DNA of 60,238 bases, filler included, from Myxococcota bacterium (GCA_049322255.1; 6 parts of 6 records of this genome joined end to end with filler, not necessarily neighbours in it); one strand, 5' to 3'. Positions 28,164-48,583 are shown, counted from the whole stretch's first letter. Translations and numbers: made by a program. The notes: generated by a model not told the origin, from the letters alone.

Positions 28164-28201
28164 AGCGCGCCGGGAACACCGGCCTTACACTTCGGTTGCC
28201 A

Positions 28202-28918
28202 ATGCGGCGCATGCAGATTCCAGGGTTTCCCGCGGTGCAATCGACGGCGGCGAAGTTGGCGATAGGGCTCATCGCCGGCTCGGTGCTCTTCGCGCTCACC
28301 CGCGGCTCGTTCGGAGCCTTGCTGGTGCTCACTCCCGAGCTGGCTCTGCGCCACTTCATGCTCTGGCAGCCCCTCACCTACACCTTCATCGAGACCTCTC
28401 CTTTGGGGGTCATCTTCGGGGCGCTCATCATCTGGTCGATTGGCGGCGCCCTGGAGATGTCCTGGGGAGCGCGGCGCATGCTCTTCTTCGCCGTGGGGGT
28501 GACGGTCCTCGCCGGGGTGCTCACCGCGCTCGTGGGGCTTTTCTCGCCGGTGATCGCCGGCCTGCCCTTCGGAGGGGGCACGGTGATGGTCACCGCCCTC
28601 TGGGTGGGTTACGGGCTGTCCTTCGGCACCCGGCAGACCAACTTCTGGGGCTTGCCCGTCACCGGCCACGTGTTCGCCCTCATCGGCGTCGGCTTCGTGT
28701 TCTTGAACGGCGCCTTCGGCAGCTGGCTCGTCGTCATTCCCGACGCCCTGGGCATTCTGCTCACCGCCTACTACGTGAAGATGGGCAGCCCGCGCGTCTT
28801 GTGGCTGCGCTTTACGTCCTGGCGGCTGCAGCGGCAGCTCAAAGCCCGGTCTTCGCACCTCAAGGTGATCGGGGGCGACCGCAACATGCGCAGCGATTCG
28901 GACCGTTACCTGCACTAA
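28202..28918 (+). CDS. rhomboid-like intramembrane protein (DUF1751-like)
   Basis: LWQPLTYTF, IGGALEMSWG, multiple TMs; no clear catalytic GxSG. Confidence 0.75.
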   Translation: MRRMQIPGFPAVQSTAAKLAIGLIAGSVLFALTRGSFGALLVLTPELALRHFMLWQPLTYTFIETSPLGVIFGALIIWSIGGALEMSWGARRMLFFAVGVTVLAGVLTALVGLFSPVIAGLPFGGGTVMVTALWVGYGLSFGTRQTNFWGLPVTGHVFALIGVGFVFLNGAFGSWLVVIPDALGILLTAYYVKMGSPRVLWLRFTSWRLQRQLKARSSHLKVIGGDRNMRSDSDRYLH

Positions 28919-28935: not shown

Positions 28936-28960
28936 GCTATCCGGGCCCCACGCTGCGCAC
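28936..28960 (-). repeat. orphan duplicate of the 3' end (VRSVGPG*) of the gene ending at 29805
   Basis: 25-nt direct repeat with 29804-29828; 2 mismatches, both synonymous. Confidence 0.85.
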
Positions 28961-28969
28961 AGGGCCGGG

Positions 28970-28999
28970 TTGTTCTTCCTCATCGTGTCGCCCTATCGT
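28970..28999 (+). promoter_or_regulatory. candidate sigma70 promoter for a leaderless NTase transcript
   Basis: TTGTTC-N18-TATCGT ending 6 nt before ATG 29006; no SD. Confidence 0.4.
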
Positions 29000-29005
29000 C
29001 GAGTG

Positions 29006-29602
29006 ATGGAGCTGCGGGACGAGTTGCGGGCCCTTTGCGGCGCGGGTGACGTGCGGGAGCATTTGGTAGAGGTGGCCGCGATCCTCGCCGAGGCGTTGCG
29101 CGCGGTTGGCATCGACCCGATCCTCGTTGGCGGCGGCGCCGCGCAGTTCCACACGGCGGGCGGATACGTCAGCGGTGATATCGACCTGGTCGCCGCGGGA
29201 AACCCGCAGCAGGCACTCGAGCGCCTCGGCTTCGAGCGAAAAGGGCGCTACTACGTTCACCCGGAATTTGGGCTCTGGGTGGAGTTCCCGTCGGGCCAGC
29301 TGGACCCCGGTGAGTCGAGCGTTGCCGTCAATGTGCGCGGCCGCAAGCTGTTGGTCATCTCGGCGCCCGACCTGCTGCTCGACCGCCTGAACGGCCTCAA
29401 GTGGGGCGGCGCGGAGGTCGATGGCGTCACCGCGCTGCTCATGTTGAGGCTACATCCTGGAATCGATGACAAAGAGGTTCGTCGCCGTGCGGCCGAGCAA
29501 CGGGTGCTGGATGCGCTGAATGGGCTGGTGGAAGAAATCGACAGCGGCGATGGGCCAGACGTCATCGTCCAACGCGTGCGACAGAGACTGAGGAAACCAT
29601 GA
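29006..29602 (+). CDS. nucleotidyltransferase-superfamily protein (DUF6036-like), putative TA component
   Basis: PILVGGGAAQFHTAGGYVSGDIDLV motif; APDLLLDRL. Confidence 0.75.
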   Translation: MELRDELRALCGAGDVREHLVEVAAILAEALRAVGIDPILVGGGAAQFHTAGGYVSGDIDLVAAGNPQQALERLGFERKGRYYVHPEFGLWVEFPSGQLDPGESSVAVNVRGRKLLVISAPDLLLDRLNGLKWGGAEVDGVTALLMLRLHPGIDDKEVRRRAAEQRVLDALNGLVEEIDSGDGPDVIVQRVRQRLRKP

Positions 29603-29808
29603 AGGAGATTGACTACGACACCTACCAGCGCCTGCTGCGAGAGCGTCGCGCCTCGCTGGGAGAGCGGTGGCAGCGCATCGACCCATCTGGGATGACGCAC
29701 AAGCCACGCCCCCCGGAGAAGCGGCAGTGGCTCCTCGAGCACGACCTGTTGACGACGCCCAAAGAAGCCCCCGGCCCTTGGAAGCCGAAGTACCGACAGG
29801 GGAGCTAG
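29599..29808 (+). CDS. small hypothetical protein (69 aa) coupled to the NTase
   Basis: ATGA overlap with NTase stop; GAGG RBS. Confidence 0.65.
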   Translation: MKEIDYDTYQRLLRERRASLGERWQRIDPSGMTHKPRPPEKRQWLLEHDLLTTPKEAPGPWKPKYRQGS

Positions 29809-31390
29809 CCCGGCCCCACGCTGCGCACGCTGGCGCGGTAGACGAAGATGCGCGCGGTGTTGGTGCGGTTGTCCGCGGGGACCATGAAGAAACCGGGCAG
29901 GTCGTCGTGCACGTCGTTGGAGAACCCGGCCACCTGGCGGCCGTCGTTGAAGGTGACGCGAACCTTTTCGCCGTTGGTGGGGCTGGGCTGCTTGCCCGGT
30001 GGGAGCATGAAGAACACCGCCTTCATTCGCTGAATGGGAATGTTCTCGGGCGCGTGACCGGCCTGAAGCTCGAGGGCGATGGTGGCGTCGAGCAAGTCGA
30101 CGTCGCGAATCACTCCGCGCTTCACCTGTCCCTCGATGGTGTGAACGATGACCCGATGCTCGCCCGCAACATACGCCGAGGCGAGCGCGCCCGGTTGTCC
30201 GAAGGCCGACGTCGGCTTGCCGCCACCCAAGGGGGGCGCCAGTGGAGCCATATTGACCGGGGCAGGAGCGGGAGGCGGCGGAGCCTCAGGTTCGGCTTCA
30301 TCGACGAGGTCGATTTCCTCCTCTGGCTCTTCAGCAGGCGACATTGCCACCGGCGTACCGACGGCGATCGGTTCGGGCGTGACGACGACGTTCGGTTTCA
30401 GCTCAGGCGAGACGATGACGCTCGGCTCCGGATCGGGCGGGTTCCAATCGGTCGTGATGTCCACGTCGAAGGAGGGGGGGGAAGGAGCGGGTGCCTCGGG
30501 GACGACAGGAGCTGGCACGAAGCTGGCGCCGGCGGAGCGTACCTGGGGGGAGTCGATGAAGTCGGCGGCGCTGGCCAGTGGCACTTGCTCCTCGCCGAGT
30601 GGAAGCGATTCCTCTGAAAGCTCGGTGGCCGAAGTGTTGGCGATCGCCGCCAGAGACCCGGACTGCACCTCGGGCATCGGTTCCTCGAGAGAGACGTCGA
30701 TGGCTGTTTTGGCAGTAGGGCTGGGTTGACGCTCGTACTGGACGAAGTCGGACGCACTGGCGAGCGGCGGGGTGTCGTCGGGGCTCCCAGAGAGGGAATC
30801 CTCCTCGCGATCGGAATCGAGGAGATCGATGACTGGGGAATCGTCAACGTCGACCGAGGGTGCCTCGTTGGCCGGTGGCGGCGACGGCTGAACGGCAGGG
30901 GTCGGGTCAAAGACCGGGGCCGCGGAGAAACCCAACGGCTCGGAGGCAGCCTCCATAGAAGGCAACTCGAAGGCGCCATGCGCGGCGAAGGGATCGGGAG
31001 CGGCGTCAACTTCCGGTGCCGGTGTCAGCACGGAAGGTGGGGGCGCAGACGCGATGCGTGGCTCCTGTAGCGGTACATAGAATCTCGCGGTTACCTCGGG
31101 AGGAGGCTCCGGGGACGTGGGCTCCGGCTCGGGTGCGACGAAGGCGTTCGGCTCTGGCTCGGGCGCGACGAAGGCGCTCGGTTCAGGCTCCGGTGCGACG
31201 ACGCTCGGCTCCGGTGCGACGACGCTCGGCTCCGGTGCGACGGCGCTCGGCTCCGGCGCGACGAAGGCGCTCGGCTCCGGTGCGACGAAGCTCGGCTCCG
31301 GTGCGACGACGCTCGGCTCCGGTGCGACGGCGCTCGGCTCCGGTGCGACGAAGGCGCTTGGCTCAGGCTCCGGCGCGACAAACGCGCTCG
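29805..31390 (-). CDS. large acidic Pro/Glu-rich protein with conserved C-terminal domain (DUF6982/FrgA-like), 5' truncated
   Basis: frame open to contig end through VAPEP repeats; C-terminal EHRVIVHTIEGQVKRG..KAVFF..VTFNDGRQVAG..GFFMVPAD. Confidence 0.75.
31120..31390 (-). repeat. coding minisatellite, 11 VAPEP units of 21/24/30 bp
   Basis: recurrent GGCTCCGGTGCGAC core on the + strand; contig ends inside the array. Confidence 0.9.
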
Positions 31391-31490
31391 NNNNNNNNNN
31401 NNNNNNNNNNNNNNNNNNNNNNNNNNNNNNNNNNTTAATTAATTAANNNNNNNNNNNNNNNNNNNNNNNNNNNNNNNNNNNNNNNNNNNN
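31391..31490. other. artificial contig linker
   Basis: N44-TTAATTAATTAA-N44. Confidence 0.99.
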
Positions 31491-31614
31491 ACGCGCGCCT
31501 TGAACGCCGGGTCGTACCGCTTCGAGTTCTTCTTCCCCATGGGACAGCTCCTTCATCATGGAGCTGCCTCGAAACGCAAAGATCGGGGTGGTCCGAAAAA
31601 CGGGGTCCACTTCA
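31491..31614 (-). mobile_element. left end of an IS3-family insertion sequence (IRL and start of orfA)
   Basis: 5'-TGAAGTGGACCCCGTTTTTCGGACCA IRL; AAGGAG RBS and ATG 31540 giving MGKKNSKRYDPAFKAR (HTH_Tnp_1-like). Confidence 0.85.
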
Positions 31615-32840
31615 ACCGACTGATCCGTCGGGTCAGCGGTCCAGGCGGGGCTGGCCGAAAGGCCGGTCGAACCGCCCAGATAGAGATAGGCTCGTCCCTC
31701 AGAGGATGCGGCTCCGTTCCATGCAGACGCGCACACGAAGACATCGGCGTAACCATCGCCGTTGACATCTCCGGCGGCGCCCACACTCGAGCCGAACAGA
31801 GCGGCGATCTGATCCGCCGGGTCGGCGGTCCACGAGGGGTTTGGAACCAGACCCGCAGCGCTGCCGAAATAGACGTAGGCGCGTCCTTCGCCAGCAGACG
31901 TTCCGTTCCACCAGGAGGCGCCGACGATGACGTCACCGAACCCATCTCCGTCGATGTCGCCTGCGCTCGCTGCGGAAGCGCCGAAGGCAGCCCCCGTTTG
32001 GTCGGTCGGGTCTGCCGTCCAACTCGGGCTGGTGGACAGCCCCGTCGGTCCACCCAAATACAAATAGGCACGTCCCTCACCGGTGGCTGTACCGGTCCAC
32101 GAAATGGCGCCGACGATGACATCGCCATACCCGTCTGCGTTGACATCGCCAGCGCTCGCTACTGAAAACCCGAAGCCGGCTCCCAATTGATCTGTCGGGT
32201 CGGCTACCCAGGAAGGCGTGACGGTCAGGCCCGCCGGTCCACCCAAATACAAATAAACGCGTCCCTCGTTGGCGGCTTCGCCGTCCCAGTTGGGGCTGCC
32301 GACGATCAAATCGGCATACCCGTCCGCGTTGACATCGCCCGCGCTCGCCGAAGAAAACCCGAAGCCGGCGGAGGCCTGATCGGCCGGATCGGCCGTCCAA
32401 GAAGAGGTCGTGCTCAGGCCCGCCGGCCCCCCATAGTACAGATACACCCGCCCTTCGGTGACAGTGCCGTCGCTCCAGTTGGGGGCTCCCACCACCACGT
32501 CCCCATACCCATCGCCGTTCACGTCACCGGCGCCCGTCACTGTCCAACCAAACCGCGTGTTGGCCTGGTCGGTTGGGTCCGCTGTCCACAGCGGAGCTCC
32601 AGCCAAGCCCGCAGCGCTCCCCAGGAACAGAAAGGCACGCCCCTCTCCAGTGGCCTCGCCGCTCCAATTCCAGGCACCGACTACGACGTCGCCGAAACCA
32701 TCACCGTCGACGTCGCCCGCGCTCGCTACGCTGGAGCCAAAGAGAGCGTCCATCTGGTCGGTCGGGTCGGCGGTCCAAGACTCGGTCGTCAGGAGCGGCC
32801 CCAAAACGACAGACACGCCTATCGCCAGCGCCAACCTCAC
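31615..32840 (-). pseudogene. FG-GAP/integrin-alpha beta-propeller protein interrupted by IS3
   Basis: six 63-aa repeats WTADPTDQ..FG..AGDVNGDG.GD..VGA..EGRAYLY; the seventh is cut at WTADPTDQSV by the IS end. Confidence 0.85.
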
Positions 32841-35317
32841 ACGCGGATTTCGGGCTTCTCCCCGCTCGGTGCCACCGGACCACCGTCAGGGGTGCCTCCC
32901 GCGGTGGGAGCGCCCTTGAACGGGTTCTGCTCCAGCGCGTTGAGCAAGACCTCGTCCATGCGGCTGGCGAAGATGAACTCCAGCTCCTTCTTCGCCTGCT
33001 CGGGTACATCGATGAGGTCCTTCTTGTTGCGCTCGGGGAGGATGACCCGCTTGATGCCGGCACGGTGCGCTGCCAACACTTTCTCCTTGATACCGCCTAC
33101 CGGCAACACCAGCCCGCGCAAGGTGGCTTCGCCGGTCATCGCGGTGTCACTACGCACGCGAATGCCGGTCATCAACGAAGTGAGCGCGGTGAGAATGGTC
33201 ACGCCCGCGCTGGGCCCGTCCTTGGGAATGGAACCGGCGGGGAAGTGCAAGTGCACGTCGGTCTTCTCGAGGAAGTTGGGGTTGATGCCCAACACCTCAC
33301 TCTTGGCGCGCAGGTAGGAGAGCGCCGCCTGGGCCGACTCTTTCATCACGTCACCCAGCTGGCCGGTGAGCGTCATGCCTCCCTTACCCACCATCTTGGT
33401 GCACTCGATGAAGAGCAGGTCGCCGCCGGCTGCGGTCCACGCCAACCCGGTGGCCACCCCGGGCACTTCGGTGCGCTCAGCCACCTCGGAGTAGAACCGC
33501 TCCGGTCCGAGAATTTCGCTGACCCGCTCGGCGGAGATGGTCTGCTTCTCGGTCTTTCCCGAAGCCACCTCCACGGCCACCGCGCGGCAGACGTCGGCGA
33601 TGCGCCGCTCGAGGTTACGCACCCCGGCCTCCCGCGTGTAGCTGACGAGAATGGTGTGGAGCGCCTTGTCCTCGAGAACGATGTGGTCGGCCGTGAGCCC
33701 GTGCTCTTTGAGCTGCTTGGGAATGAGGTGGATCTTGGCGATCTGCTCCTTCTCGTCGAAGGTGTAGCCGGACAGCTCGATGATCTCCATGCGGTCCTTG
33801 AGCGGACCAGGAATGGGGTCGAGCATGTTGGCAGTGGCAATGAACATGACCTTCGACAGATCGAACGGCACGTCGAGGTAGTGGTCGGAGAAGGAGTTGT
33901 TCTGCTCAGGGTCGAGAACCTCGAGCAGCGCCGCCGAAGGGTCGCCACGGAAGTCGGCCCCCAGCTTGTCGATTTCGTCGAGCATCATCACCGGGTTCTT
34001 GGTGCTCGCCTTCTTCATGCTCTGAATGAAGCGGCCGGGGAGGGCGCCCACGTAGGTGCGCCGGTGCCCGCGAATCTCCGCCTCGTCGCGCACCCCACCC
34101 AAGGACAGGCGCACGAACTTGCGGCCCACCGCCTTGGCGATCGACTGACCCAGCGAGGTCTTACCGACGCCCGGTGGACCCACCAGACACAAGATGGGCC
34201 CTTTCATGTCGTTCTTGAGCTTGCGCACCGCCAGGTACTCGAGAATGCGCTTTTTCACCTTCTGAATGCCGAAGTGGTCGGCGTCGAGAATCTTCCGCGC
34301 GTTCTCGATGTCCAGGTTGTCGTCGCTTTGCTTGCTCCAGGGCAGGTCGGCGATCCAGTCGAGGTAGGTGCGGGCGACGGTGTACTCGCTGGACGCGGCG
34401 GGAATGGTTTTGAGCCGGTTGAGCTCCTTTTGAGCGACCTTCTCCACGTCGGGGGGCAGGCCGGCCTTCTTCAGCCGCTCCTGCAGCTCGTCGAGCTCTT
34501 CTTCCTCCTCTCCCATCTCGCCCAGCTCTTCCTTGATCGCCTTGAGCTGCTGGCGCAGGTAGTACTCCCGCTGGGTCTTCGACATCTCGCCTTTGACCGC
34601 GGAGTCGATCTTGTTCGAGAGCTTGAGGATCTCGCGCTTGCGGTTGAGCAGCTCGAGCACCAGCTTCATCCGCGCCTTCAAGTCTACTGTCTCCAGCACC
34701 GCCTGTTTTTCCTCGATCGGCACGTCGACGTTGGCAGCGATGAGGTCTGCCAAGTGGCCGGGATGGGTGATCGACTCCACGAGCTCCGTGGCGGCGGCCG
34801 GCAGCTCGGGCATCAGCTCGATCACCTCACGGGCGAGCTTCTTTAGATTGATGCCCAGCGCCTCCACCTCCACGTTCTCAGCGGCGGTCTTGTCCTCCAC
34901 CGGCTCGATGCGGGCTTTGAGGTAGGGCGCTTCTTGCACCAGGTCGACCACCCGGAAGCGGGCCAACCCCTGCACCACCAGCGAGTAGTTGTCCTCTCCC
35001 ATCTTGAGCAGCTTCACGATGCGGGCCACGGTGCCCATCGAGTAGAGGTCGGCTGACCCGGGGTCTTCCTCCTCCGCCTTGCGCTGGGTGACCACGCCGA
35101 TCACCTGGTCATCGCGCACCGCGTCCTTGATCAGCGCGATGGTCTTTTGCCTGCCCACCGCCAGCGGGAGCACGCCCCCCGGGAAGAACACCGAGTTCCG
35201 CAAGGGGAGAATGGGCAACACCTGAGGGATGTCGTCCTTGTTGATGAGCCCAGGAGGCGACATCGGGGCTGCCATCGGCTGGGCCGCGCCGCCACCTTTC
35301 TTCTTTTCGTCGGACAT
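32837..35317 (-). CDS. lon: ATP-dependent Lon protease (LonD/BsgA type)
   Basis: LON N-domain, GPPGVGKT, PKDGPSAG, GGIKEK; N-terminus MSDEKKKG..PPGLINKDDIPQVLPILPLRNS matches my recollection of M. xanthus LonD. Confidence 0.97.
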   Translation of the reverse strand: MSDEKKKGGGAAQPMAAPMSPPGLINKDDIPQVLPILPLRNSVFFPGGVLPLAVGRQKTIALIKDAVRDDQVIGVVTQRKAEEEDPGSADLYSMGTVARIVKLLKMGEDNYSLVVQGLARFRVVDLVQEAPYLKARIEPVEDKTAAENVEVEALGINLKKLAREVIELMPELPAAATELVESITHPGHLADLIAANVDVPIEEKQAVLETVDLKARMKLVLELLNRKREILKLSNKIDSAVKGEMSKTQREYYLRQQLKAIKEELGEMGEEEEELDELQERLKKAGLPPDVEKVAQKELNRLKTIPAASSEYTVARTYLDWIADLPWSKQSDDNLDIENARKILDADHFGIQKVKKRILEYLAVRKLKNDMKGPILCLVGPPGVGKTSLGQSIAKAVGRKFVRLSLGGVRDEAEIRGHRRTYVGALPGRFIQSMKKASTKNPVMMLDEIDKLGADFRGDPSAALLEVLDPEQNNSFSDHYLDVPFDLSKVMFIATANMLDPIPGPLKDRMEIIELSGYTFDEKEQIAKIHLIPKQLKEHGLTADHIVLEDKALHTILVSYTREAGVRNLERRIADVCRAVAVEVASGKTEKQTISAERVSEILGPERFYSEVAERTEVPGVATGLAWTAAGGDLLFIECTKMVGKGGMTLTGQLGDVMKESAQAALSYLRAKSEVLGINPNFLEKTDVHLHFPAGSIPKDGPSAGVTILTALTSLMTGIRVRSDTAMTGEATLRGLVLPVGGIKEKVLAAHRAGIKRVILPERNKKDLIDVPEQAKKELEFIFASRMDEVLLNALEQNPFKGAPTAGGTPDGGPVAPSGEKPEIRV

Positions 35318-35441
35318 GTGAGTTCGCTCCTGGGGTAAACGACTTCTAGTGCTTGTAGTTCAGCACCCTTAGCGCCGCAATGAAAACTGGGCCGAGCGAG
35401 CAACCTCCCCTGGCGAACACAAGCTCGCCCCCGAGCAAAGG

Positions 35442-35466
35442 CTGGGGCATGCTTACCCCCGTCAAG
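35442..35466 (-). promoter_or_regulatory. possible heat-shock (sigma32-like) promoter upstream of lon
   Basis: CTTGAC-N13-CCCCAG on the minus strand. Confidence 0.25.
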
Positions 35467-35493
35467 GCCGCTTGAAAGCTTTAGGAGAAGTCC

Positions 35494-36729
35494 ATGGCTC
35501 GGTTCACTCGCGCCCTCGCGGGAGTCATCGCCGTGCTCGCCCTCGCCCGGTGTGGCGCCTGCACCTCCCCCGTCGACGACCCGACGTCGAAGGTCCCCGG
35601 TCAATGCCAGGCGGAGCAGCCGCTCCTCGAGCCCCAGAAGCTCGACATCCTCTTCGTGATCGACAACTCCGGCTCGATGAAGGAGGAACAAGAGGGAGTG
35701 GCCCGCGAGCTCACCGCCTTCGTCGACGAGGTCAAGCGCGGTGGTGGTGTGGCGCAGGACTTTCATGTCGGCGTCATCACCACTTCGGTGTACCAGCACA
35801 CGTTGGTCAACAGCGTGCGTGGCTACCGGGAATACCCTGGCCAGGCAGGCAAGCTGCAGCCGGTGCCCGATGCGTCTTCCGACGGCGGTGTTCTTTTGGG
35901 CACGGGCACCGAACGCATGCTGTCGGGCACCGACCCCCAGCTGGTGGAGAAGTTCGCCCGGCTGGTGCAGGTGGGCACAACCGGCTCAGGCCAGGAGACC
36001 CCCTTCGAAGCTGCGAGGTTGGCGCTGACCGCCGATCACCTGATCAAAATGCCGATCGAAGAGGGTGGTAACGGCGGCTTCTTGCGCGACCGCGCACGGC
36101 TCCTGGTGGTGGTAGTGACCGACGAGGACGACTGCAGCGAAACTGCGCGCCCACCGGTGGTCACCGTGGGCTCCGATCCGAGGCGGGATTACTGCACCGA
36201 GCAGACCAATTCGCTCACTCCGCTGTTGGAGTACCACCAGATTTTCAGCACGCTGAAAGACGGCACCGGTGCCACCCGCGAAATCGTGTGGGCGACGATC
36301 GGCCCGGTGGGCGTTTCGAGCAAGCAAGTGCAGAGCGTGGTGGTGGACAACCACGTCGCCAACGTCGACTGCCCCACGAGCTACCAGCCAGGCTTCCGCC
36401 AACGGCAGCTGGCCGAGATGTTCAACGACTCGCTGGCGAACCTCGATTCAATTTGCAAGCCCTCCTACCGGGAAACGCTGGTGGCGATCGCCGGGCTGGC
36501 CAACATCAGCCAGACGCTGGAGGTGCGCAACGTGCCCGCGCCTGAGCTTTTGCAGCTCGAAATCATCCGCTTCGACGACAGCTCGGAGCTGTGCACCTTG
36601 TCCAATGGTGGGCTGACCGCCTACGACGAGCCGACCGCTGACCAGCCCGGGCGCATTCACTTCGGCAACCAGTGCCGCCGCCGCATCGACGACAAAGAAG
36701 TACGCATCAAGCTGATTTGCGCGGGATGA
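35494..36729 (+). CDS. VWA-domain (lipo)protein, myxobacterial type
   Basis: DILFVIDNSGSM MIDAS motif, VVTDEDDCS; N-terminal signal with Cys. Confidence 0.88.
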   Translation: MARFTRALAGVIAVLALARCGACTSPVDDPTSKVPGQCQAEQPLLEPQKLDILFVIDNSGSMKEEQEGVARELTAFVDEVKRGGGVAQDFHVGVITTSVYQHTLVNSVRGYREYPGQAGKLQPVPDASSDGGVLLGTGTERMLSGTDPQLVEKFARLVQVGTTGSGQETPFEAARLALTADHLIKMPIEEGGNGGFLRDRARLLVVVVTDEDDCSETARPPVVTVGSDPRRDYCTEQTNSLTPLLEYHQIFSTLKDGTGATREIVWATIGPVGVSSKQVQSVVVDNHVANVDCPTSYQPGFRQRQLAEMFNDSLANLDSICKPSYRETLVAIAGLANISQTLEVRNVPAPELLQLEIIRFDDSSELCTLSNGGLTAYDEPTADQPGRIHFGNQCRRRIDDKEVRIKLICAG

Positions 36730-36735
36730 GAGGAG

Positions 36736-36780
36736 CCCCTCTTCCCCTGGGAGAGGCTTGGAGCGAAGGGCAGGGAGGGA
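36736..36780 (+). repeat. degenerate REP-like palindrome
   Basis: CCCCTCTTCCCCTGGGAGAGG...AGGGCAGGGAGGG just after the VWA stop. Confidence 0.5.
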
Positions 36781-36813
36781 ACCCTCGCGCCCGCTGGTGC
36801 GTCTTTCGCGCAC

Positions 36814-37431
36814 GTGACTCTTCTGGCTCTTCGTGCCCTGGCCGTCGTCCTCCTCTTGTCGTGGCCCTGCTTCGCGTTGCCACCCGCGGTGGCGCGGAAG
36901 ATGGTCTTGGCCGCTCGTTCGGTGCTGGGCACGCCATACCAGTTTGGTGGCCGTCTGCGCCCCGGTGCCACCGGCATCGACTGCCAGGGGGTGGTGTTCT
37001 TCGCCGCCGAGGCGATCGGCCGGTGCGGCTGGAAGTCCTTCGCGGTGAACCCCACCGAGACGGTTTTGCGCAGAGAGCTGGGCGTACCTGTGAAAGGTCT
37101 GGCCCCAGTGCGCTCCGACCAATTGGACATCGGCAAGCTGCAGATGGGAGACGTGCTCATGCTTGTCGCGCCCGACCGAAATCCGCTCGAAGGCCCCATC
37201 GGGCAACTCGACGGCGGCGACGTCTGGGTCTGGCACGTGGGAGTGTATTCGGGAAACGGCAAGTGGATCGTCGGAGACCACTTTGCCGGCCGGGCGATTG
37301 AGACGCATCTCGCCGCCTACCTCACCGAGCACGCCCGCACCTATCGCGGTGTCTTCGTCACCCGCATGGAGAAGGGCCCTGCGCCCGCGCGCTGCCGCCG
37401 TCACCCGCCAATGGGAGAGCCACCGCGTTGA
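36814..37431 (+). CDS. secreted NlpC/P60-like cysteine hydrolase
   Basis: LGTPYQFGG, GIDCQG, WHVGVY; signal peptide. Confidence 0.85.
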   Translation: MTLLALRALAVVLLLSWPCFALPPAVARKMVLAARSVLGTPYQFGGRLRPGATGIDCQGVVFFAAEAIGRCGWKSFAVNPTETVLRRELGVPVKGLAPVRSDQLDIGKLQMGDVLMLVAPDRNPLEGPIGQLDGGDVWVWHVGVYSGNGKWIVGDHFAGRAIETHLAAYLTEHARTYRGVFVTRMEKGPAPARCRRHPPMGEPPR

Positions 37432-37491
37432 CGTGGCACCAGGTCGGCCGCTCGTCTTGCGAGGCATAGATCGCGGTGCTACATCGCCGCC

Positions 37492-39303
<1,812 letters not shown>

Positions 39304-39356
39304 ACGCCGAGGAGACGACGGAGGCGCCGCGCATCGGCATCGGTCGCGAGGAGCCC

Positions 39357-39461
39357 GTGGGTCCCAGCCCGCTCCTGGCTGCCGCGCTCGCCGTGCTGGT
39401 CGCGGTGGCGGTGTTCGCCTTCATCTGGAAACTGCGCAAGACCTTCGGGATGCAGGAGTAG
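39357..39461 (+). CDS. possible 34-aa single-TM protein (start uncertain)
   Basis: LLAAALAVLVAVAVFAFIW followed by KLRK; stop abuts the next ATG. Confidence 0.4.
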   Translation: MGPSPLLAAALAVLVAVAVFAFIWKLRKTFGMQE

Positions 39462-40190
39462 ATGGCTTTCTTCGGTGAGCTGTACCTGCGCAGCACCTTG
39501 CCGTTCCTTTCGCCCGAAGTGACCGCGCGCGAGGTGGCGTACCTCGCCTCGGTCTTCGATCGGCTGGAGGGAGACGGTCCAATCGCCGATGTCGGGTGTG
39601 GTCACGGCCGGCATGCAGGACGGTTGGGGTCGGTGCTTCGCCGCCGTCGAAGTGTCTTGGGCTTCGATTCCGACGCGCTCTCGCTGGCCGAGCGGGAAAG
39701 GGACTTTTCGGCTGTACGGGCGGATTTCTTTCGCTTACCGCTCGCCGCTCGTTCGCTCGCCGGGGCCTACGCCTGGTACTCGACCTTGTTCGTATTCGAA
39801 GATTCGGCGCAGCTTCCCCTCTTTCGCGAATTGGCGCGCTGCGTGCGTCCGGGCGGAATGTTGATCTTTCAGACTGTGCCCTACGACCGGGTGGCAAGAG
39901 AGCCGATCGCCTCCTATGACGGAGAGCTTCCCGGCGGAGTTCACCTCATCGAGCGCAGCACCTTCGACCCCCGAAGCGGCCGCGACAACGGCTACCGCGA
40001 GCTGTCGCTGCCCGATGGTCGCGTTCTTTCCGGCCACTTCTTCATCCGCTACTATCCGCTGTCCCAGCACTCCCGCCTGCTGGAGGAGGCCGGTTTCCGC
40101 GTCCAATGGGTGCACGGCGGGGTGGACGGGGCGCCGTTAACAACCTCATCGGCCGACCTCATCATCGGAGCGGAACGCGTCAATGGTTGA
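39462..40190 (+). CDS. class I SAM-dependent methyltransferase
   Basis: [11 protein letters not shown] motif I; VRPGG. Confidence 0.9.
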
Positions 40191-40587
40191 GAGCAAGCTA
40201 CGAATCCTGGTGGCCAAGCCCGGGCTCGACGGGCACGACCGCGGGGCGAAGATTATCGCCCGCGCCCTGCGTGACGCCGGCATGGAGGTCATCTACACCG
40301 GGCTGCACCAAACGCCCGAGATGATCGTCAACGCCGCGATTCAAGAAGACGTCGATGCGATCGGCATGTCGATCATGAGCGGCGCCCACATGACGCTCTT
40401 CCCGGCGGTGATCGAGCTTCTGCGAACACAGAAGGCCGGCGACATCCAGGTGTTCGGGGGCGGTATCATTCCCGATGGAGACATTCCCAAGCTCAAAGAG
40501 CTGGGCGTCTCGGAAATCTTCACTCCCGGCAGCTCGACCCAGGACATCGTCCGCTGGATTCGGGCCAATATTCCGGCTCGGGCGTGA
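40183..40587 (+). CDS. cobalamin-binding small subunit of the acyl-CoA mutase
   Basis: [12 protein letters not shown] (DxHxxG), SIMSGAH, GGGIIP. Confidence 0.95.
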
Positions 40588-41531
40588 GCTCCTGGCTCTC
40601 GAAGATTCCGGCACGGGTCGAGGTGTATGAGGTCGGCCCACGCGACGGGCTACAGAACGAGCTACGCACGCTGCCCACGACCGACAAGGTGCGGTTGGTT
40701 CATGCCCTGGTCGCCGCAGGGCTTCGGCGCATCGAGGTCACCTCGTTCGTCTCGCCCAAATGGATTCCGCAGCTGGCGGACGCCGAAAAGGTGCTGGCGG
40801 AGCTGAAGGCGCCCCAGGGAGTGGTGTTCTCCGCGTTGGTCCCGAACCTCAAGGGCCTCGAGCGCGCTCAGACCGCGGGCCTGCCGGAGGCGGCGGTCTT
40901 TCTCTCTGCCACCGAGAGCCACTCGAAAAGGAACATCAACAAGAGTGTCGCCGAGGCGATCGACACCGCGCGCGAAGTTGCGAACGCGGCGAAGAATATC
41001 GGGATGAGGGTACGCGGATACCTCTCTTGCGTGTGGGGTTGCCCCTACGAGGGCGCGGTGAGCGTGGAGCGCGTCTTGGAGATTTGCCGCGAGCTCGCCG
41101 AGGCGGGCCTCCATCAACTCTCCCTGGGCGATACGATTGGGGTGGGTACCCCGGGACAGACGGAGCGAATTCTTTCCGCCCTCCTAGAGCACCTTCCGAT
41201 CGAAAAACTCGCCCTGCACTTGCACGACACGCGCGGTACGGCGCTGGCCAACGCGCTGGTGGGGTTGTCGATGGGCATCACCACCTTCGACGCCAGCGTG
41301 GGCGGGTTGGGGGGCTGCCCGTACGCGCCAGGGGCGGCAGGGAACTTGGCCACTGAAGACTTGGTCTACATGCTCCACGGCCTGGGTGTGCAGACCGGCG
41401 TCGACCTCGACAAGCTGGTCGAGGCGGGCGCTCTCGCCCAGGAACTGATTGGGCGAAAGCTCTCGGGCAAGTATTTGCAGGCGGCGCTGGGCGAGCGAGA
41501 CAAGAAGCCCCACGGCCGCGCCCAGACTTGA
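40584..41531 (+). CDS. hydroxymethylglutaryl-CoA lyase
   Basis: [38 protein letters not shown]. Confidence 0.95.
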
Positions 41532-41666
41532 GCGCCCAGCTCCTAGAGAGCTGACCCGGTTAGGTCGAGTGAGGCGAGGGCCCGAAGGTTGACGAGGGCG
41601 GCATGTCGTCGTTGGTCGAAGAGGTTCTTCCGGATGCCGCGGTAACGGGCTCGCTTCCCTGAGCGG

Positions 41667-41766
41667 NNNNNNNNNNNNNNNNNNNNNNNNNNNNNNNNNN
41701 NNNNNNNNNNTTAATTAATTAANNNNNNNNNNNNNNNNNNNNNNNNNNNNNNNNNNNNNNNNNNNN
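41667..41766. other. artificial contig linker
   Basis: N44-TTAATTAATTAA-N44. Confidence 0.99.
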
Positions 41767-43407
41767 TTCGAAGACGTCATCGCCGCCGGCGCCCTCTACC
41801 GCCCCGGCCCGCTCGACTCGGGCATGGTCGACGTGTTCATCAACAGAAAGCACGGGCGCGAGAAGGTGAGCTACCCGCACCCGGCGCTCGAGCCGGTGCT
41901 CAAAGACACCTACGGGGTCATCGTCTACCAAGAGCAGGTGATGCAGATCTCGCAAATCCTCGGCGGCTATTCGCTGGGGCGCGCCGACCTCTTGCGCCGC
42001 GCGATGGGCAAGAAGAAGGCCGAGGTGATGCAAAAGGAGCGGGCTGGCTTCCTCGAGGGCTGTCAGAAGAACGGGGTCGACCCCAAGGTGGCGGGAGAGA
42101 TTTTCGACCTGATGGAGAAATTCGCCGAGTACGGCTTCAACAAGTCGCACTCCGCCGCCTACGGGCTCATCACCCTACAGACCGCGTGGCTCAAGGCGCA
42201 CCACCCGGTGGAGTTCATGGCCGCGCTGCTCACCTCCGAGAAGGACAACACCGACAAGGTGGTGGCTTACATCAGTCAGGCGCGCGCGACGGGCCACGAG
42301 GTGTTGCCGCCGGACGTCAACCTCTCCGACCTCGCCTTCGGTGCGGTCGAGGGGAAGATTCGTTTCGGCCTGGGCGCCATCAAGGGCGTGGGCGAGGCGG
42401 CCATCGAGGCGATCATGGAGGCTCGGGTCAGCGGGCCGTTCAAGGACCTGTTCGATTTCTGCGAGCGGGTGGACTCGCGGCGAGTGAACAAGAAGGTGGT
42501 GGAGGCGCTGGTGAAGGCGGGCGCGTTCGACTTCGAGAAACGCCCCCGGCGGCAGCTGTTCGAGACCATCGAGCGGGCGATGGAGCGGGGCGCGTCCTCG
42601 CAGCGGGACAAGGCGGTGGGGCAATCGTCGCTGTTCGGTCTGCTTTCCGACCAGAGCGCTCCCACCTTGAAGAACGAGTACGCCGCCTCAGCGGAGTGGA
42701 ACGAGAAGGAACGGCTCTCCTTCGAGAAAGAGGCGATCGGCTTCTACGTCTCCGGCCACCCGCTGCACCAGTACGAGAAGGAGCTGCGCCGCTACGCGAG
42801 GCCGGCGAGCTTCGTGCAGCGAGCGCGCCGCGACGAGAAGGTGACGGTGGCGGGCATCGTGGGGGCCTTGCGCGAGCGACCCACCAAGACCGGCAAGCGC
42901 ATGGCGTGGGTGACGCTGGAGGACCTCTCCGGCTCGGTGGAGGTGGTGTGCTTCCCCGGGCGTGAGGGCGGCCGCTCGGTGATGGGTAAGGACGGCAAGT
43001 GGACCCGCGGCGGTCCCAAGCCGGGCTTCGAGACGTGGGAGACTCTGCTCAAGAGCGACGACCCCATCCTGGTGACGGGGACGGTGCAGGTGAACACCCG
43101 CGACGACGAGAACCCGGTGGCCGAGCTCATCGCCGAGGACATTCAGTCGCTGCGCGAGGTGCGCGAGAAGCGCGTCAGACGCCTGGAGCTACGTCTGCTC
43201 GCCGAGATGGTCACCGAAGAGCGGCTTTCGCAGCTGCTCGAGCTCTCCAAGAAGTACGAGGGCGCCACCCCGATTGCGGTGTCCATCGTGCTACCGGGAG
43301 AGGCGGAGGCGATCATCGGGAACACCGCCCTCAAGGTGGCGGTGAGCGACGAATTGCTCGAGGCCGTCGACCGGCTCTTCGGAGCTAAGGTCGCCGAGCT
43401 GAGTTGA
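41767..43407 (+). CDS. dnaE: DNA polymerase III alpha subunit, C-terminal part (5' truncated)
   Basis: ALYRPGP, YQEQVM, YGFNKSH, GLGAIKGVG, OB fold. Confidence 0.97.
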   Translation, partial: FEDVIAAGALYRPGPLDSGMVDVFINRKHGREKVSYPHPALEPVLKDTYGVIVYQEQVMQISQILGGYSLGRADLLRRAMGKKKAEVMQKERAGFLEGCQKNGVDPKVAGEIFDLMEKFAEYGFNKSHSAAYGLITLQTAWLKAHHPVEFMAALLTSEKDNTDKVVAYISQARATGHEVLPPDVNLSDLAFGAVEGKIRFGLGAIKGVGEAAIEAIMEARVSGPFKDLFDFCERVDSRRVNKKVVEALVKAGAFDFEKRPRRQLFETIERAMERGASSQRDKAVGQSSLFGLLSDQSAPTLKNEYAASAEWNEKERLSFEKEAIGFYVSGHPLHQYEKELRRYARPASFVQRARRDEKVTVAGIVGALRERPTKTGKRMAWVTLEDLSGSVEVVCFPGREGGRSVMGKDGKWTRGGPKPGFETWETLLKSDDPILVTGTVQVNTRDDENPVAELIAEDIQSLREVREKRVRRLELRLLAEMVTEERLSQLLELSKKYEGATPIAVSIVLPGEAEAIIGNTALKVAVSDELLEAVDRLFGAKVAELS

Positions 43408-43447
43408 TGCTCCCTCGGCCGTGCCCAGGGCGAGCAAACGTGTCGCG
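43357..43447 (+). repeat. direct repeat copy 1 (dnaE last 16 codons, stop and 40 nt downstream)
   Basis: 91 nt, 85/91 identical to 44992-45082. Confidence 0.95.
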
Positions 43448-43626
43448 TCGTGCCAGGGCGATCGCATCCCAAGGCGACCAACCGCAAGAAGCCCGGCCAG
43501 GTGGGCGACTACAACGGCTCCAGCAAAGGCACGGTGGCGGTGGCCTGTCCCCAGCCTGCTGGCCGGCTCTTTCGCCTCGGTCCTTTGATTGCGCTCGGTG
43601 CTATTCTTCTTTCAGGAGGTTTTGCC

Positions 43627-43878
43627 GTGGCGACCTTGAGCATCGAGCTTCCGGAGACGGTTCTACTGGCGACAGGCCAGTCTCGTGATGAGTTCCTTAC
43701 CGAAGCTCGCTTCCTACTCGCACTGAAGCTCTTCGAGCTCGGACGAATCTCCTCCGGAAAGGCCGCCGAGATCTGCGGCATGGGCCGAGTCGAGTTCCTC
43801 TTCGCCGCGGGTCGCCATGGCGTACCAGTTGCCGATCTCGACGAGTACGAGGAGCTGGCCCCCTCACATGGGCGCTGA
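43627..43878 (+). CDS. UPF0175-family antitoxin
   Basis: ALKLFELGRISSGKAAEICGMGRVEF; AGGAGGT RBS before GTG 43627. Confidence 0.88.
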   Translation: MATLSIELPETVLLATGQSRDEFLTEARFLLALKLFELGRISSGKAAEICGMGRVEFLFAAGRHGVPVADLDEYEELAPSHGR

Positions 43879-44368
43879 ACGCACGCTGGTCGTCGTTGAT
43901 TCAGGCCCGGTCATCGCGCTCGCTGGTGCTGATTGCCTGGACCTCCTTCGCTCGTTGTACGACCGGATAGTCATGCCGACAGTCGTGCGGGATGAAATTG
44001 CCGCGCCGCCAACTGGCCGACCAGGGGCTGCAGCGGTCCTAGGCGCGGACTGGATAGAGCACCTTCCTCCTCTTGGCCTGCCCGACCCATTCATCGCTGG
44101 AGCGCTCGACTACGGTGAGGCGGCTGTCATCGCGCTTGCGCGCACGCTCCCGGGTGCCGAGGTCTTGATCGACGAACGTCGAGGACGCCGTGTGGCCAAG
44201 ACGGCATATGGCCTGGCCGTTGTCGGAACAGTGGGCGTGCTGCTCCGCGGAAAGCAAAGCGGCCTTCTTCAGGAAATCGACCCCGCGATCCGCCGCATTC
44301 TGCAGAACGGCTACTACCTGTCGGAGCGGCTCGTGAGCGAGGCGCTGCGAATTGCCGGGGAGCGCTGA
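43868..44368 (+). CDS. DUF3368/PIN-domain toxin
   Basis: VVDSGPVI, LDYGEAAVIALA, LIDERRGRRVA, GTVGVL. Confidence 0.9.
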   Translation: MGAERTLVVVDSGPVIALAGADCLDLLRSLYDRIVMPTVVRDEIAAPPTGRPGAAAVLGADWIEHLPPLGLPDPFIAGALDYGEAAVIALARTLPGAEVLIDERRGRRVAKTAYGLAVVGTVGVLLRGKQSGLLQEIDPAIRRILQNGYYLSERLVSEALRIAGER

Positions 44369-44441
44369 TGAGGATGCTCGCTTCCGCCTCGAGCCTCGTC
44401 ACACGGCCGCGCTGGTCTTACCGCTTCCTACTAGGTGAGGG

Positions 44442-44945
44442 ATGATCCCCCTCCTGTTCGTGGCGTGGGTGTCGATGGGTCAGGCGAGCCCGCCGTCCTT
44501 GTTGCCCGGGCCATCGTTCGAGATTCCGTCGATCGAGGGGCAGGCCGACCTCGACCGCCGCATCGACGCACTGAACCTGCGAATCCGGCGCATCGACATC
44601 CACTGGCCGCGGCCGACGCTGATCATGGCAGGCGCTGGAGGTGTGGGCCTGTACGTATGGACGATCATGGCGCTCGATGAGGGCACGCGGCCCAGCGGTG
44701 GGCTGGACGGGGGTGTCTGGGGCTTCGAATCGCTCACGCTGTTGTCGGTATCGGCCACGCTATTGCTCGGCGGTATGGGCAGTGGCCACTACTTCGCCTC
44801 GAACGCGCGCATCGAGCGCGACGAGCTGATCAGGCAACGCGACGAGCTCGAGCGGTTGCGCCAGGCAGGATCACTCGCCTTCGCCTTCACCCCGACACTC
44901 TCCCGGAAGGAGAGGGAGTGGCTCAAGCGCCCAGCTGCGCCTTGA
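44442..44945 (+). CDS. hypothetical membrane protein
   Basis: signal-like N-terminus, two TM segments, coiled coil. Confidence 0.6.
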   Translation: MIPLLFVAWVSMGQASPPSLLPGPSFEIPSIEGQADLDRRIDALNLRIRRIDIHWPRPTLIMAGAGGVGLYVWTIMALDEGTRPSGGLDGGVWGFESLTLLSVSATLLLGGMGSGHYFASNARIERDELIRQRDELERLRQAGSLAFAFTPTLSRKEREWLKRPAAP

Positions 44946-44991
44946 CCAACGCGTCGGGCGGCAGGCTCGCGCGGGCATCGGCATCTCTCAT

Positions 44992-45082
44992 CTCGAGGCC
45001 GTCGACCGGCTCTTCGGAGCCAAGGTGGCCGAGCTGGGTTGACGCTCCCTCGGCTGGGCCCAGGGCGAGCAAACGTGTCGCG
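44992..45082 (+). repeat. direct repeat copy 2 (orphan dnaE 3' end, LEAVDRLFGAKVAELG*)
   Basis: 91 nt, 6 mismatches against 43357-43447. Confidence 0.95.
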
Positions 45083-45099: not shown

Positions 45100-46014
45100 A
45101 TGCTTGGGCCCGTGCCACGGGTGATTCTCCTGTGCGGCCTTTTGGGGGCAGGCCTCGCCACCGGCGACGACCGCGCCCAACGAGCGCGCGACGAGCTCGA
45201 GCGGCAGCTGCGCCAGATGATGGGCGACATTCCCCCGCCCAAGGTGGACATCTTCTTCGAGGGCCTCGACGACCCGCAGTTTCGCCTGGTGGAGGCGGAA
45301 TTCACGCTCGACGGCGCTCCGCTCGCCGCGCCCTCGCCCGACCAGCTCGACGCCGAAGGGCTGCATAAGCTGTTCTCGGGAGAGCTCAAGCCCGGAGAGC
45401 ACACCCTGGTGAGCCAGGTCGTCTTCACCGACAAGTCGTCGGTCGTCTTCAGCTACACCCCCGGCTACAAGTGGAAGGTGGGGCGTGCGGTGAAGTTCCT
45501 CGCTCAGCGTGGGCTGGAGGTGAAGGTGGTGGCCGTTCCCGAGCTGCTCTCTCGCGTCAAGGACCCCAAGGAGCGCTTCACCTTGAAGCACCAGGTGGAC
45601 GCGAAGATGGTCGCCAAGCTGGAAGACGGAACGCTGGCGCCCCCGGGGGAGAAGAAGGCCGAACCGCCCGATGCCGGGGTCGCAGAGACGGTCGCTCAGC
45701 AGGAGAAGAAGCCCCAGGCCGAAGAGGCGGAGGACACTCAGCCGGCGCCTGCCGAGGAAAAGAAGCGCAAGCCGAAGAAGGTGGCCGCGGCGATGGGCGC
45801 CTCCGAGGTGAAGCCGGCGGTGGCGCTCGCGCCGGTCGAGCCGGAGGCGCCGACTGTCGAAGCGGTCCCCGAGCACATCGACGCCGGCGAAGCTGTGGCG
45901 GTAGCGACGGAGGAAAAGCCGGCTCCGGAAGCGGACTTTCCGTGGCTCTTGGTCGTCGGCGTGGGCACCGTCGTCGCCGGAGTGGTGTTGGTGCTTCTCA
46001 GCCGCCGGCGCTGA
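45100..46014 (+). CDS. exported protein with Pro/Ala/Glu linker and C-terminal membrane anchor
   Basis: signal peptide; FPWLLVVGVGTVVAGVVLVLLSRRR tail. Confidence 0.75.
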   Translation: MLGPVPRVILLCGLLGAGLATGDDRAQRARDELERQLRQMMGDIPPPKVDIFFEGLDDPQFRLVEAEFTLDGAPLAAPSPDQLDAEGLHKLFSGELKPGEHTLVSQVVFTDKSSVVFSYTPGYKWKVGRAVKFLAQRGLEVKVVAVPELLSRVKDPKERFTLKHQVDAKMVAKLEDGTLAPPGEKKAEPPDAGVAETVAQQEKKPQAEEAEDTQPAPAEEKKRKPKKVAAAMGASEVKPAVALAPVEPEAPTVEAVPEHIDAGEAVAVATEEKPAPEADFPWLLVVGVGTVVAGVVLVLLSRRR

Positions 46015-48501: not shown

Positions 48502-48548
48502 GGAAGGCTGAATTAGATCAACTCGCTCCGAAATGCGCGCTCCGAACA

Positions 48549-48583
48549 CCCTCTCCCTCTGGGAGAGGGCAGGGGGTGAGGGG
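48549..48583 (+). repeat. REP-like palindrome (intergenic)
   Basis: CCCTCTCCC-TCT-GGGAGAGGG-CAGGGGGTGAGGGG. Confidence 0.85.

Follow-up and report, generated by a model that had tools for sequence, protein, structure and literature searches.

Introduction

Insertion with long target duplication was reportedly described for restriction-modification genes by Nobusato et al. in 2000. In the account of Furuta, Abe and Kobayashi (2010, PMC2853133), such restriction-modification genes lie between repeats of variable length that often run across a start or stop codon, and they carry no mobility gene. The sections of that paper on distribution and cause place most cases in naturally competent species, suggest DNA breaks made by the cargo as the cause, and propose a virus-like cycle with no evidence for the release step; its Table 3 includes duplications of 25 and 29 bp (PMC2853133). 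The relevant passages of a 2013 review name the process for restriction-modification systems only (PMC3874152). Here, we describe the same anatomy around toxin-antitoxin (TA) modules and other genes in a Myxococcota bacterium (GCA_049322255.1). The stretch of DNA analyzed, 60,238 nt long and hereafter called the window, consists of six contigs of one assembly with N spacers between them. Between positions 28936 and 45082, it holds two loci, A and B, in which a small TA-like operon sits between the end of a host gene and an orphan copy of that gene end.

Integrative elements at icd, such as phage 21 and e14, produce a related arrangement, as an evolved attP gives edges at the stop codon, a replacement tail, and an original tail displaced downstream. 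The loci described here likewise have a replacement tail running to the stop and a displaced original downstream, but they have no integrase, att motif, or constant site, and their cassettes measure 0.5–2.5 kb. A second relevant process was measured in E. coli given linear incoming DNA. There, 56 of 60 recombinants gave a PCR product diagnostic of duplication, with lengths of 109–950 bp in the 14 that were sequenced; the account of that work assigns the cause to trimming, re-circularization, and a single crossover, and puts duplications at ten times the frequency of homology-facilitated illegitimate events (PMC3240628). Third, in the C-terminal displacement described for T6SS/rhs/cdi genes, a new module arrives at a conserved gene, the former 3′ end is displaced downstream, and repetition of this leaves orphan arrays (PMC5361080). 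Our loci share these features. As that paper presents them, however, those systems swap the toxin tips of one family, whereas here many unrelated housekeeping genes regain an almost identical end, and a separate operon forms the cargo (PMC5361080). Our literature search, in which coverage of subscription journals was poor, returned no paper on TA modules with long target duplications.

Results

Two TA-like operons lie between copies of host gene ends

The genome (4.85 Mb in 196 contigs, 99.6% complete) had no same-genus relative among the genomes searched. Judging by its gene content and by a homologue labelled Myxococcales, it probably falls within Myxococcaceae. Loci A and B are on separate contigs, C131 and C134, and share the architecture set out in the original prediction: a gene end, a small operon, and an orphan gene end. 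At locus A, positions 28936–28960 match positions 29804–29828 at 23 of 25 nt. Read on the minus strand, this repeat comprises the last seven codons of a DUF6982 gene, the stop codon, and 1 nt more, and both differences between the copies are synonymous. At locus B, positions 43357–43447 match positions 44992–45082 at 85 of 91 nt, and the repeat exceeds a gene tail, taking in 51 nt of the end of dnaE and 40 nt past the stop. The inserts, of 843 nt and 1,544 nt, are flanked by direct repeats of host DNA, the duplication being longer than 30 bp at locus B and shorter at locus A. The host genes stay whole, in keeping with the earlier view that core genes are not disrupted. That the two repeats are unrelated and differ in length, 25 against 91 nt, had been taken to argue against a single site-specific integrase; the argument holds, with no integrase, common site, or motif found.

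A 7,904-nt contig of a public sequencing run covers locus B with 0 differences. As this run is probably the genome's own source sample, the contig counters assembler error and gives no independent support.

Gene-end duplications recur across the genome and are enriched for TA cargo

We called 4,293 genes with a purpose-built dicodon model, by which some atypical genes were missed, and sought a copy of each gene end downstream of every stop, with REP-like repeats, paralogues, and N-gap artefacts removed. Copies were present downstream of 16 of 3,919 gene ends, against 0 of 3,842 in the upstream control. One convergent pair was counted twice, and the 16 matches correspond to 15 loci, which contain 16 cassettes of 0.5–2.5 kb each. 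Anchors placed 30–150 nt inside genes gave 3–8 matches, 2–4 per offset being other loci, and an independent, stricter run returned 14 of 3,643 gene ends against 5 and 4 for inner anchors. No cassette had a copy elsewhere in this genome at more than 70% DNA identity over its full length.

Pfam TA families occurred in 10 of the 16 cassettes. The cargo was Phd-PIN at lysA, MNT-HepT at both an aldo-keto reductase gene and a response regulator gene, AbiEii on contig C1, Phd-ParE both on C44 and at a trmB-like methyltransferase gene, VapB-PIN at both a phosphoribosyltransferase gene and an RNase H gene, MazE-type-PIN at a cytochrome c gene, and UPF0175-DUF3368 at dnaE. The remaining six comprised cargo A, one 75-aa gene without a family, three cassettes with other genes, and one without a recognized gene. 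For a baseline, a TA match lay within 1.5 kb of 124 of 3,125 gene ends (4.0%) and within 2.5 kb of 179 of 2,981 (6.0%); families on the baseline list were carried at 9 of the 15 loci. TA-type cargo genes had a G+C content at third codon positions (GC3) of 0.68–0.84, compared with 0.86–0.91 for host genes. The TA load is high for 4.85 Mb, with 52 PIN, 24 Phd, 27 nucleotidyltransferase, 12 HepT, and 9 ParE matches, and among 80 relatives, only one (G020) equals the PIN count. Collectively, these data show a genuine feature that is general in this genome and enriched for TA modules, extending the original pair to 15 loci. The association is not exclusive, since four of the 16 cassettes hold other cargo or none.

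Several kinds of repeat were set aside. At least nine perfect 127-nt repeats over 100-N gaps are assembly artefacts; palindromic REP-like repeats and tandem paralogues were excluded from the scan matches; and several seeming mid-gene repeats proved to be tails cut by a contig end or a deletion. Within the window, the REP-like family is seen at 48537–48575 and 54851–54889; it is abundant genome-wide and sometimes provides a stop codon. A second dispersed repeat of about 22–30 nt occurs at 52126–52155 and on many other contigs, in dozens of copies often within called genes or at their ends. The window also contains Cys-rich coding repeats, a 21–24-nt Pro/Glu-rich tandem array upstream of the DUF6982 gene, and six 189-nt units (11734–13891, 31105–31390, and 31616–32721).

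Gene content of the two loci

All features of locus B are on the plus strand. The 3′ part of the host gene dnaE, encoding DNA polymerase III alpha, occupies 41767..43407 (Pfam PF17657, PF14579, and PF01336). It finishes in the in-use copy of the repeat (43357..43447), formed by the last 16 codons, the stop, and 40 nt, and the protein ends ELS. Next comes a near-C-terminal scrap of an Fe-S (CCG-domain) oxidoreductase gene (43453..43551), of which an intact gene is on contig C68 (83% identity over 84 nt, E 8e-18; 73% over 33 aa). The scrap is followed by a predicted UPF0175 antitoxin (43627..43878; Pfam PF03683, E 2e-20; GC3 0.70) and a predicted PIN-like toxin of the DUF3368 (COG2405) family (43868..44368; Pfam PF11848, E 8e-13; GC3 0.68), a family present in 4 of 150 genomes of the bacterial family. 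Adjacent on one strand, these two genes have the arrangement of a predicted COG2405/UPF0175 type II TA module, a pairing described as a predicted PIN-type TA in the relevant part of PMC5499597. A third cargo open reading frame (ORF) of 167 aa (44442..44945) has no Pfam or NCBIfam match. The orphan dnaE end with its 40 nt (44992..45082) ends ELG, and beyond it lies the native gene after dnaE, which encodes 304 aa of no family (45100..46014). Neither a sigma-70 promoter nor an intrinsic terminator was found at locus B. Its cargo was absent from all 29 relatives' dnaE loci, covered mostly with 1.5 kb of flank. Metagenome scans gave no match with the dnaE end and only two distant loci with the PIN protein.

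At locus A, a rhomboid-family gene (28199..28918, plus strand; Pfam PF01694/PF08551) is the native convergent neighbor of the DUF6982 gene. The orphan DUF6982 gene end (28936..28960, minus strand) has its own stop 18 nt from the rhomboid stop. Cargo A gene 1 (29006..29602, plus strand) encodes a 198-aa nucleotidyltransferase of DUF2204/DUF6036 type with a MenT-like fold. Gene 2 (29599..29808, plus strand), of 69 aa and no family, has a 4-nt overlap with gene 1 and travels together with it. The in-use gene end (29804..29828, minus strand) belongs to the DUF6982 host gene (29805..31031, minus strand; Pfam PF22478, E 1e-27), the 5′ part of which is probably beyond the contig end. The host protein was matched in 22 of 24 family genomes, and cargo A was seen at none of 29 relatives' DUF6982 loci.

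Cargo A gene 1 has an invariant GG..D-x-D motif, an Atlas score of 0.96 to DUF2204/DUF6036 clusters, and a GC3 of 0.79, against about 0.9 in host genes. Its structural model (pLDDT 93.5) best matched a fungal nucleotidyltransferase-like protein and the MenT3 toxin, the latter with a Foldseek E of 7e-4 and a TM of 0.51. A single-sequence fold of cargo A gave a pLDDT of only 45, and a solved-structure profile search gave no real match. Neither cargo A gene has a Pfam or NCBIfam family, though one homologue matches DUF2204 below the cut-off. Cargo A also contains no recognized antitoxin gene and no Pfam AbiEii match. It is TA-like and a candidate module of the AbiEii/MenT kind, and its TA role is putative. 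A genome scan for close relatives of cargo A returned nothing useful. The pair recurs in G020, with 73.5% DNA identity over 793 nt and without flanking repeats, upstream of a gene that we take to be radA-like. Of 24 loci in other genera with a distant relative of cargo A, five (L261, L263, L266, L270, and L275) have direct repeats on both sides of it; at two of these, the repeats presumably resemble tRNA 3′ ends, and no integrase was evident within the 3.4 kb covered at the five loci.

Limits of the pattern within the genome and among relatives

A reverse test started from the cargo. After 7 of 84 listed TA loci and 22 of 260 sampled host genes had been dropped, the TA loci for short flanks, a flanking repeat within 1.2 kb was present at 7 of 77 TA loci compared with 0 of 238 host genes (p = 4e-5). 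About nine in ten TA loci in this genome therefore have no flanking repeat. Self-comparison of the genome also revealed TA-family or AAA_14 cargo between repeats that are not gene tails: an intergenic region with the start of the next gene on C135, a gene start on C54, non-coding DNA on C20, C53, and C156, and a tRNA-like 3′ end on C127, with one TA pair between the copies. The 3′ gene tail is thus the commonest form but not the sole one, and the specificity for 3′ ends contained in the original prediction has to be given up.

Other insertions of related appearance were noted. AAA_14-DUF4143 single genes recur at gene ends (C133:13145–14371, C103:116436–117617, C20:28379–29545, and C47:4550–5734), three of the four between direct repeats, a behavior like that of TA modules. 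At L052 (C54:20649–22268), a 197-nt duplicated gene start with its upstream region flanks a DUF433 gene, and the duplicated head is joined in frame to a foreign ORF. An 808-nt repeat (99%) surrounds about 8 kb of accessory genes at C74:10016–19763, and a 758-nt repeat (93%) surrounds two response regulator-like genes at C22:11588–13986. The tails of rodA and two other genes have 87–96% copies on other contigs (C47:3390–4541 with C62:17294–17391; C48:14994–16400 with C103:59508–59558; C19:32470–34179 with C150:1849–1997); an AAA_14-DUF4143 gene follows rodA, and a VapBC pair follows the C48 gene. These cross-contig copies may be insertions later separated by rearrangement.

Among relatives from other genera, 86 TA loci were in the set, of which 8 were dropped for short flanks; the locus in G064 was excluded from the repeat test. 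A flanking repeat was present at 2 of 78 loci, and 0 of 300 mismatched pairs reached that score. In G075, the tail of a DUF4349 gene is repeated around MNT-HepT, and in G066, a pair of tRNA-like sequences surrounds a PIN module. A second sample consisted of 60 regions (1.14 Mb) picked around TA genes in eight TA-rich relatives. Here, 807 gene ends yielded five matches, and inner anchors yielded 1 and 0 orphans. One match, in G008, is a 56-nt pmbA tail that ends on the stop and surrounds a VapBC pair; two more, in G068 and G051, are gene tails around single non-TA genes; and the other two are paralogues. Gene-tail cases thus occur in four other genera, with TA cargo in two, and the pattern is present across the family. 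The rate at TA loci in our genome compares with that in relatives as 7 of 77 against 2 of 78 (p = 0.10) or 1 of 78 (p = 0.03), making the higher frequency here borderline. At these rates, the proposal that TA modules generally spread by this route is not supported.

Recombinases and empty sites

The genome has four tyrosine-recombinase matches, one resolvase, one weak DDE match, and no large serine recombinase. No integrase, resolvase, serine recombinase, or DDE transposase was found in any cassette or adjoining one, the repeats are not a multi-copy element, and neither integrase pieces nor restriction or DNA-methylase families were found among the cargo ORFs scanned. An origin of the cassettes in integrase-bearing elements, which had been offered as a way for the proposal to fail, accordingly found no support within them. 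The weak DDE match is some 700 nt past the orphan on C54. An IS91-like transposase stands next to a tyrosine recombinase at C116:4884–6299, with no cassette linked to it.

An empty site could be compared only through family-level gene order. A homologue of the 304-aa gene directly follows dnaE in 7 of 29 relatives' loci, and the rhomboid gene lies at most 150 nt from the DUF6982 stop in 6 of the 27 relatives' loci having enough flank. At both dnaE and DUF6982, the native neighbors are kept, and there is duplication instead of a recipient deletion. No empty-site or circle joint was present among 15 joints listed from three public runs, two of which (X2 and X3) contain only distant organisms; contigs lose rare variants, so this is not evidence of absence.

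Origin of the duplications

The reading that we prefer, and to which we give about an even chance, is that these are insertions with long variable target duplications, in which donor DNA would be trimmed, circularized, and integrated by one crossover in a gene tail through host enzymes rather than a recombinase of the element's own. A related donor would already have a TA module adjoining a conserved gene; most of the roughly 100 TA-family genes in this genome do sit between genes without repeats. A linear donor piece would then enter with the gene end, the module, and some flank, its ends would be trimmed randomly and joined as a circle, and a single crossover in the common gene end would integrate the circle. 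Genes for ComEC and DprA (entry) and for Ku and LigD (joining) have one match each in the genome, and E. coli offers a precedent for the joining and the crossover. The product has the order gene end, cargo, second gene end, and native neighbor. One edge of the repeat would mark the limit of donor-recipient likeness, often the stop codon, and the other the trimmed end. At several loci, the displaced copy has decayed through substitutions, indels, and deletions. Such a site can take further insertions, giving arrays, and the repeats would permit cassette loss, which addictive or otherwise selected cargo would withstand. The TA excess may thus arise because addictive cargo resists loss.

A circle and a single crossover predict variable repeats, an edge at the end of homology, donor scraps, hybrid copies, and site reuse. 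Repeat lengths range from 18 to at least 790 nt across loci. The right edge lies −7 to +3 nt from the stop in 12 of 20 loci, one 57-nt perfect repeat finishing exactly on the stop, while the left edge spans −4 to about −790 nt. Cassettes contain scraps of other core genes, cut off and 82–83% identical to the intact genes. Besides the Fe-S scrap at locus B, the head of a SAM-dependent methyltransferase gene of the window (53922..54911, plus strand) has a copy of its positions 53938–54021 inside the AbrB-PIN cassette on C50 (82% over 84 nt, E 3e-15), just before the cytochrome c orphan, and an ABC-transporter C-terminal scrap lies downstream of the OPT gene. Sites have been reused: the response regulator gene has two cassettes, and two orphans are present for OPT as well as for a channel-like gene on C24/C96.

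The copies themselves speak in part for replacement of the tail by a donor allele. The dnaE orphan retains the terminal Gly of most family members, and the in-use copy has Ser. At OPT, the copy before a MazF cassette ends KG, whereas both the full-length gene and the orphan that follows the cassette end RGDSPGT. The former copy carries an internal deletion; compared with the full gene, it shows 13 synonymous and 3 non-synonymous changes, 2 of the 16 falling in a poorly aligned stretch; the comparison assumes a link between contigs C163 and C1, and strain mixing in the assembly is possible. Pooled pN/pS between copies was 0.34–0.42 (95% range, 0.23–0.55), or 0.34–0.40 over 28 pairs in this genome, intermediate between two functional alleles and a decaying duplicate. 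The homology-driven tail replacement of the original prediction is thus favored by dnaE and OPT, is opposed by cytochrome c, and gains only an intermediate signal from the pooled divergence; it remains an inference.

Several observations weigh against a circle from a homologous donor. At cytochrome c, it is the in-use copy that has the family residues, the orphan being decayed, and the pN/pS range overlaps the value of about 0.5 that would be expected of an in-place duplicate with a decaying orphan. The native gap after the stop is at most 32 nt in 11 of 20 loci, so the preference for stops partly reflects tightly packed native neighbors. The donor gene orders predicted from the scraps were not found, the methyltransferase gene being beside cytochrome c, and the Fe-S gene beside dnaE, in 0 of 29 relatives' loci each. 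Several repeats are only 18–30 nt and do not exceed the ~30 bp given for RecA, so they would need later erosion. Genes for Ku, ComEC, and DprA are common, and their presence shows no activity. Lastly, neither a donor nor a circle nor an empty site in the same species was observed.

Some of these points would suit in-place illegitimate insertion, in which foreign DNA is copied or joined in at a break or stalled fork and replication restarts upstream, duplicating the target without any donor homology while selection spares the neighbors. We regard this as possible but on the whole doubtful. It would account for repeats that are 99–100% identical over 57–790 nt, for repeats over starts and whole intergenic regions, for new stops a few nt early at rnhA and OPT, for the upper end of the pN/pS range, and for cargo A at an unrelated site in G020. 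It predicts right edges scattered past the stop, however, against the clustering seen in 12 of 20 loci. The synonymous divergence at OPT is also allele-like, and AT-ending synonymous codons are evenly split between copies (21 in-use, 18 orphan).

We consider it improbable that the cassettes are decayed remains of many different integrase islands or prophages that had carried a replacement gene end and now retain only the addictive TA pair and both att copies. The evolved attP at icd would give just such stop-codon edges, a TA pair does lie between tRNA-like 3′ ends on C127, and the one 8-kb insert on C74 is of island size. Yet recombinases are few, with none in the cassettes and no integrase piece in the cargo ORFs scanned, repeats that are 99–100% identical leave scant time for loss of a whole island, and at least 15 independent decays would be required.

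Still less probable is homology-facilitated illegitimate recombination, whereby a linear donor strand anchored in the gene end joins its free end just upstream of the end of the anchor. Under this reading too, a repeat edge should fall where homology ends and pieces of donor flank should remain; the genome has ComEC and DprA, and PMC5361080 proposes the process for T6SS/rhs orphan arrays. As characterized in the E. coli work, however, it usually deletes about as much DNA as it inserts and does not duplicate (PMC3240628). A dedicated trans-acting enzyme, aimed at stop codons or transcript ends and inserting TA cassettes through long staggered cuts, would fit the stop-codon preference, the higher frequency in this genome (p 0.03–0.10), and the recombinase genes on C116, but we think it very improbable, as repeat length varies, cargo families are unrelated and include non-TA cargo, and there is no common terminal motif: no junction motif or att-like sequence was found (the top 6-mer was in 5 of 19 junctions, the same as in random DNA), nor any sequence common to repeats of different loci (best cross-locus score, 25).

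Discussion

The original prediction knew of no named system that matched these loci, but insertion with long target duplication, as presented in PMC2853133, has equal anatomy, including repeats over starts and stops, and we do not regard our cassettes as a new element class. In both, a small addictive module in an insert of less than 20 kb is flanked by variable direct repeats of host DNA (25–423 bp in that study) without a mobility gene, and the copies can differ, one of them, as described there, fitting the empty site better (PMC2853133). Unlike that system, the cargo here is RNase- or nucleotidyltransferase-type TA plus ordinary genes and does not cut DNA, making this a variant rather than a member. 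Also unlike the system as described there, we see at least 15 loci in a single genome, nested arrays, core-gene scraps, and no same-species empty site (PMC2853133). The E. coli route is similar in placing an insert between two part-gene copies of variable length; it differs in being a laboratory conjugation assay with an engineered substrate and a frequency of 4e-9 per recipient, its description reports no TA route, and the repeats here are often shorter (PMC3240628).

New here is that the cargo is unable to cut DNA, that a single genome contains many cases, that arrays are nested, and that scraps of other core genes occur within cassettes. That the cargo cannot cut DNA points to host repair and recombination, and not to a cargo enzyme, as the cause. 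With at least 15 footprints of different ages in a single genome, this comparative pattern can be linked to a route measured in E. coli, and the stop-anchored scan serves as a simple finder of recent gene gains in a single genome.

Finally, it is conceivable, though we would call it unlikely, that TA modules here follow a cycle without a recombinase: driven by the host's enzymes for uptake, end joining, and recombination, gene-end fragments would circularize and integrate, then excise as circles by way of the duplicated end and re-enter the same gene in naive relatives, with addiction blocking loss. If true, such a cycle would account for this lineage's TA load and would supply the release-and-reinvasion step hypothesized for restriction-modification genes.

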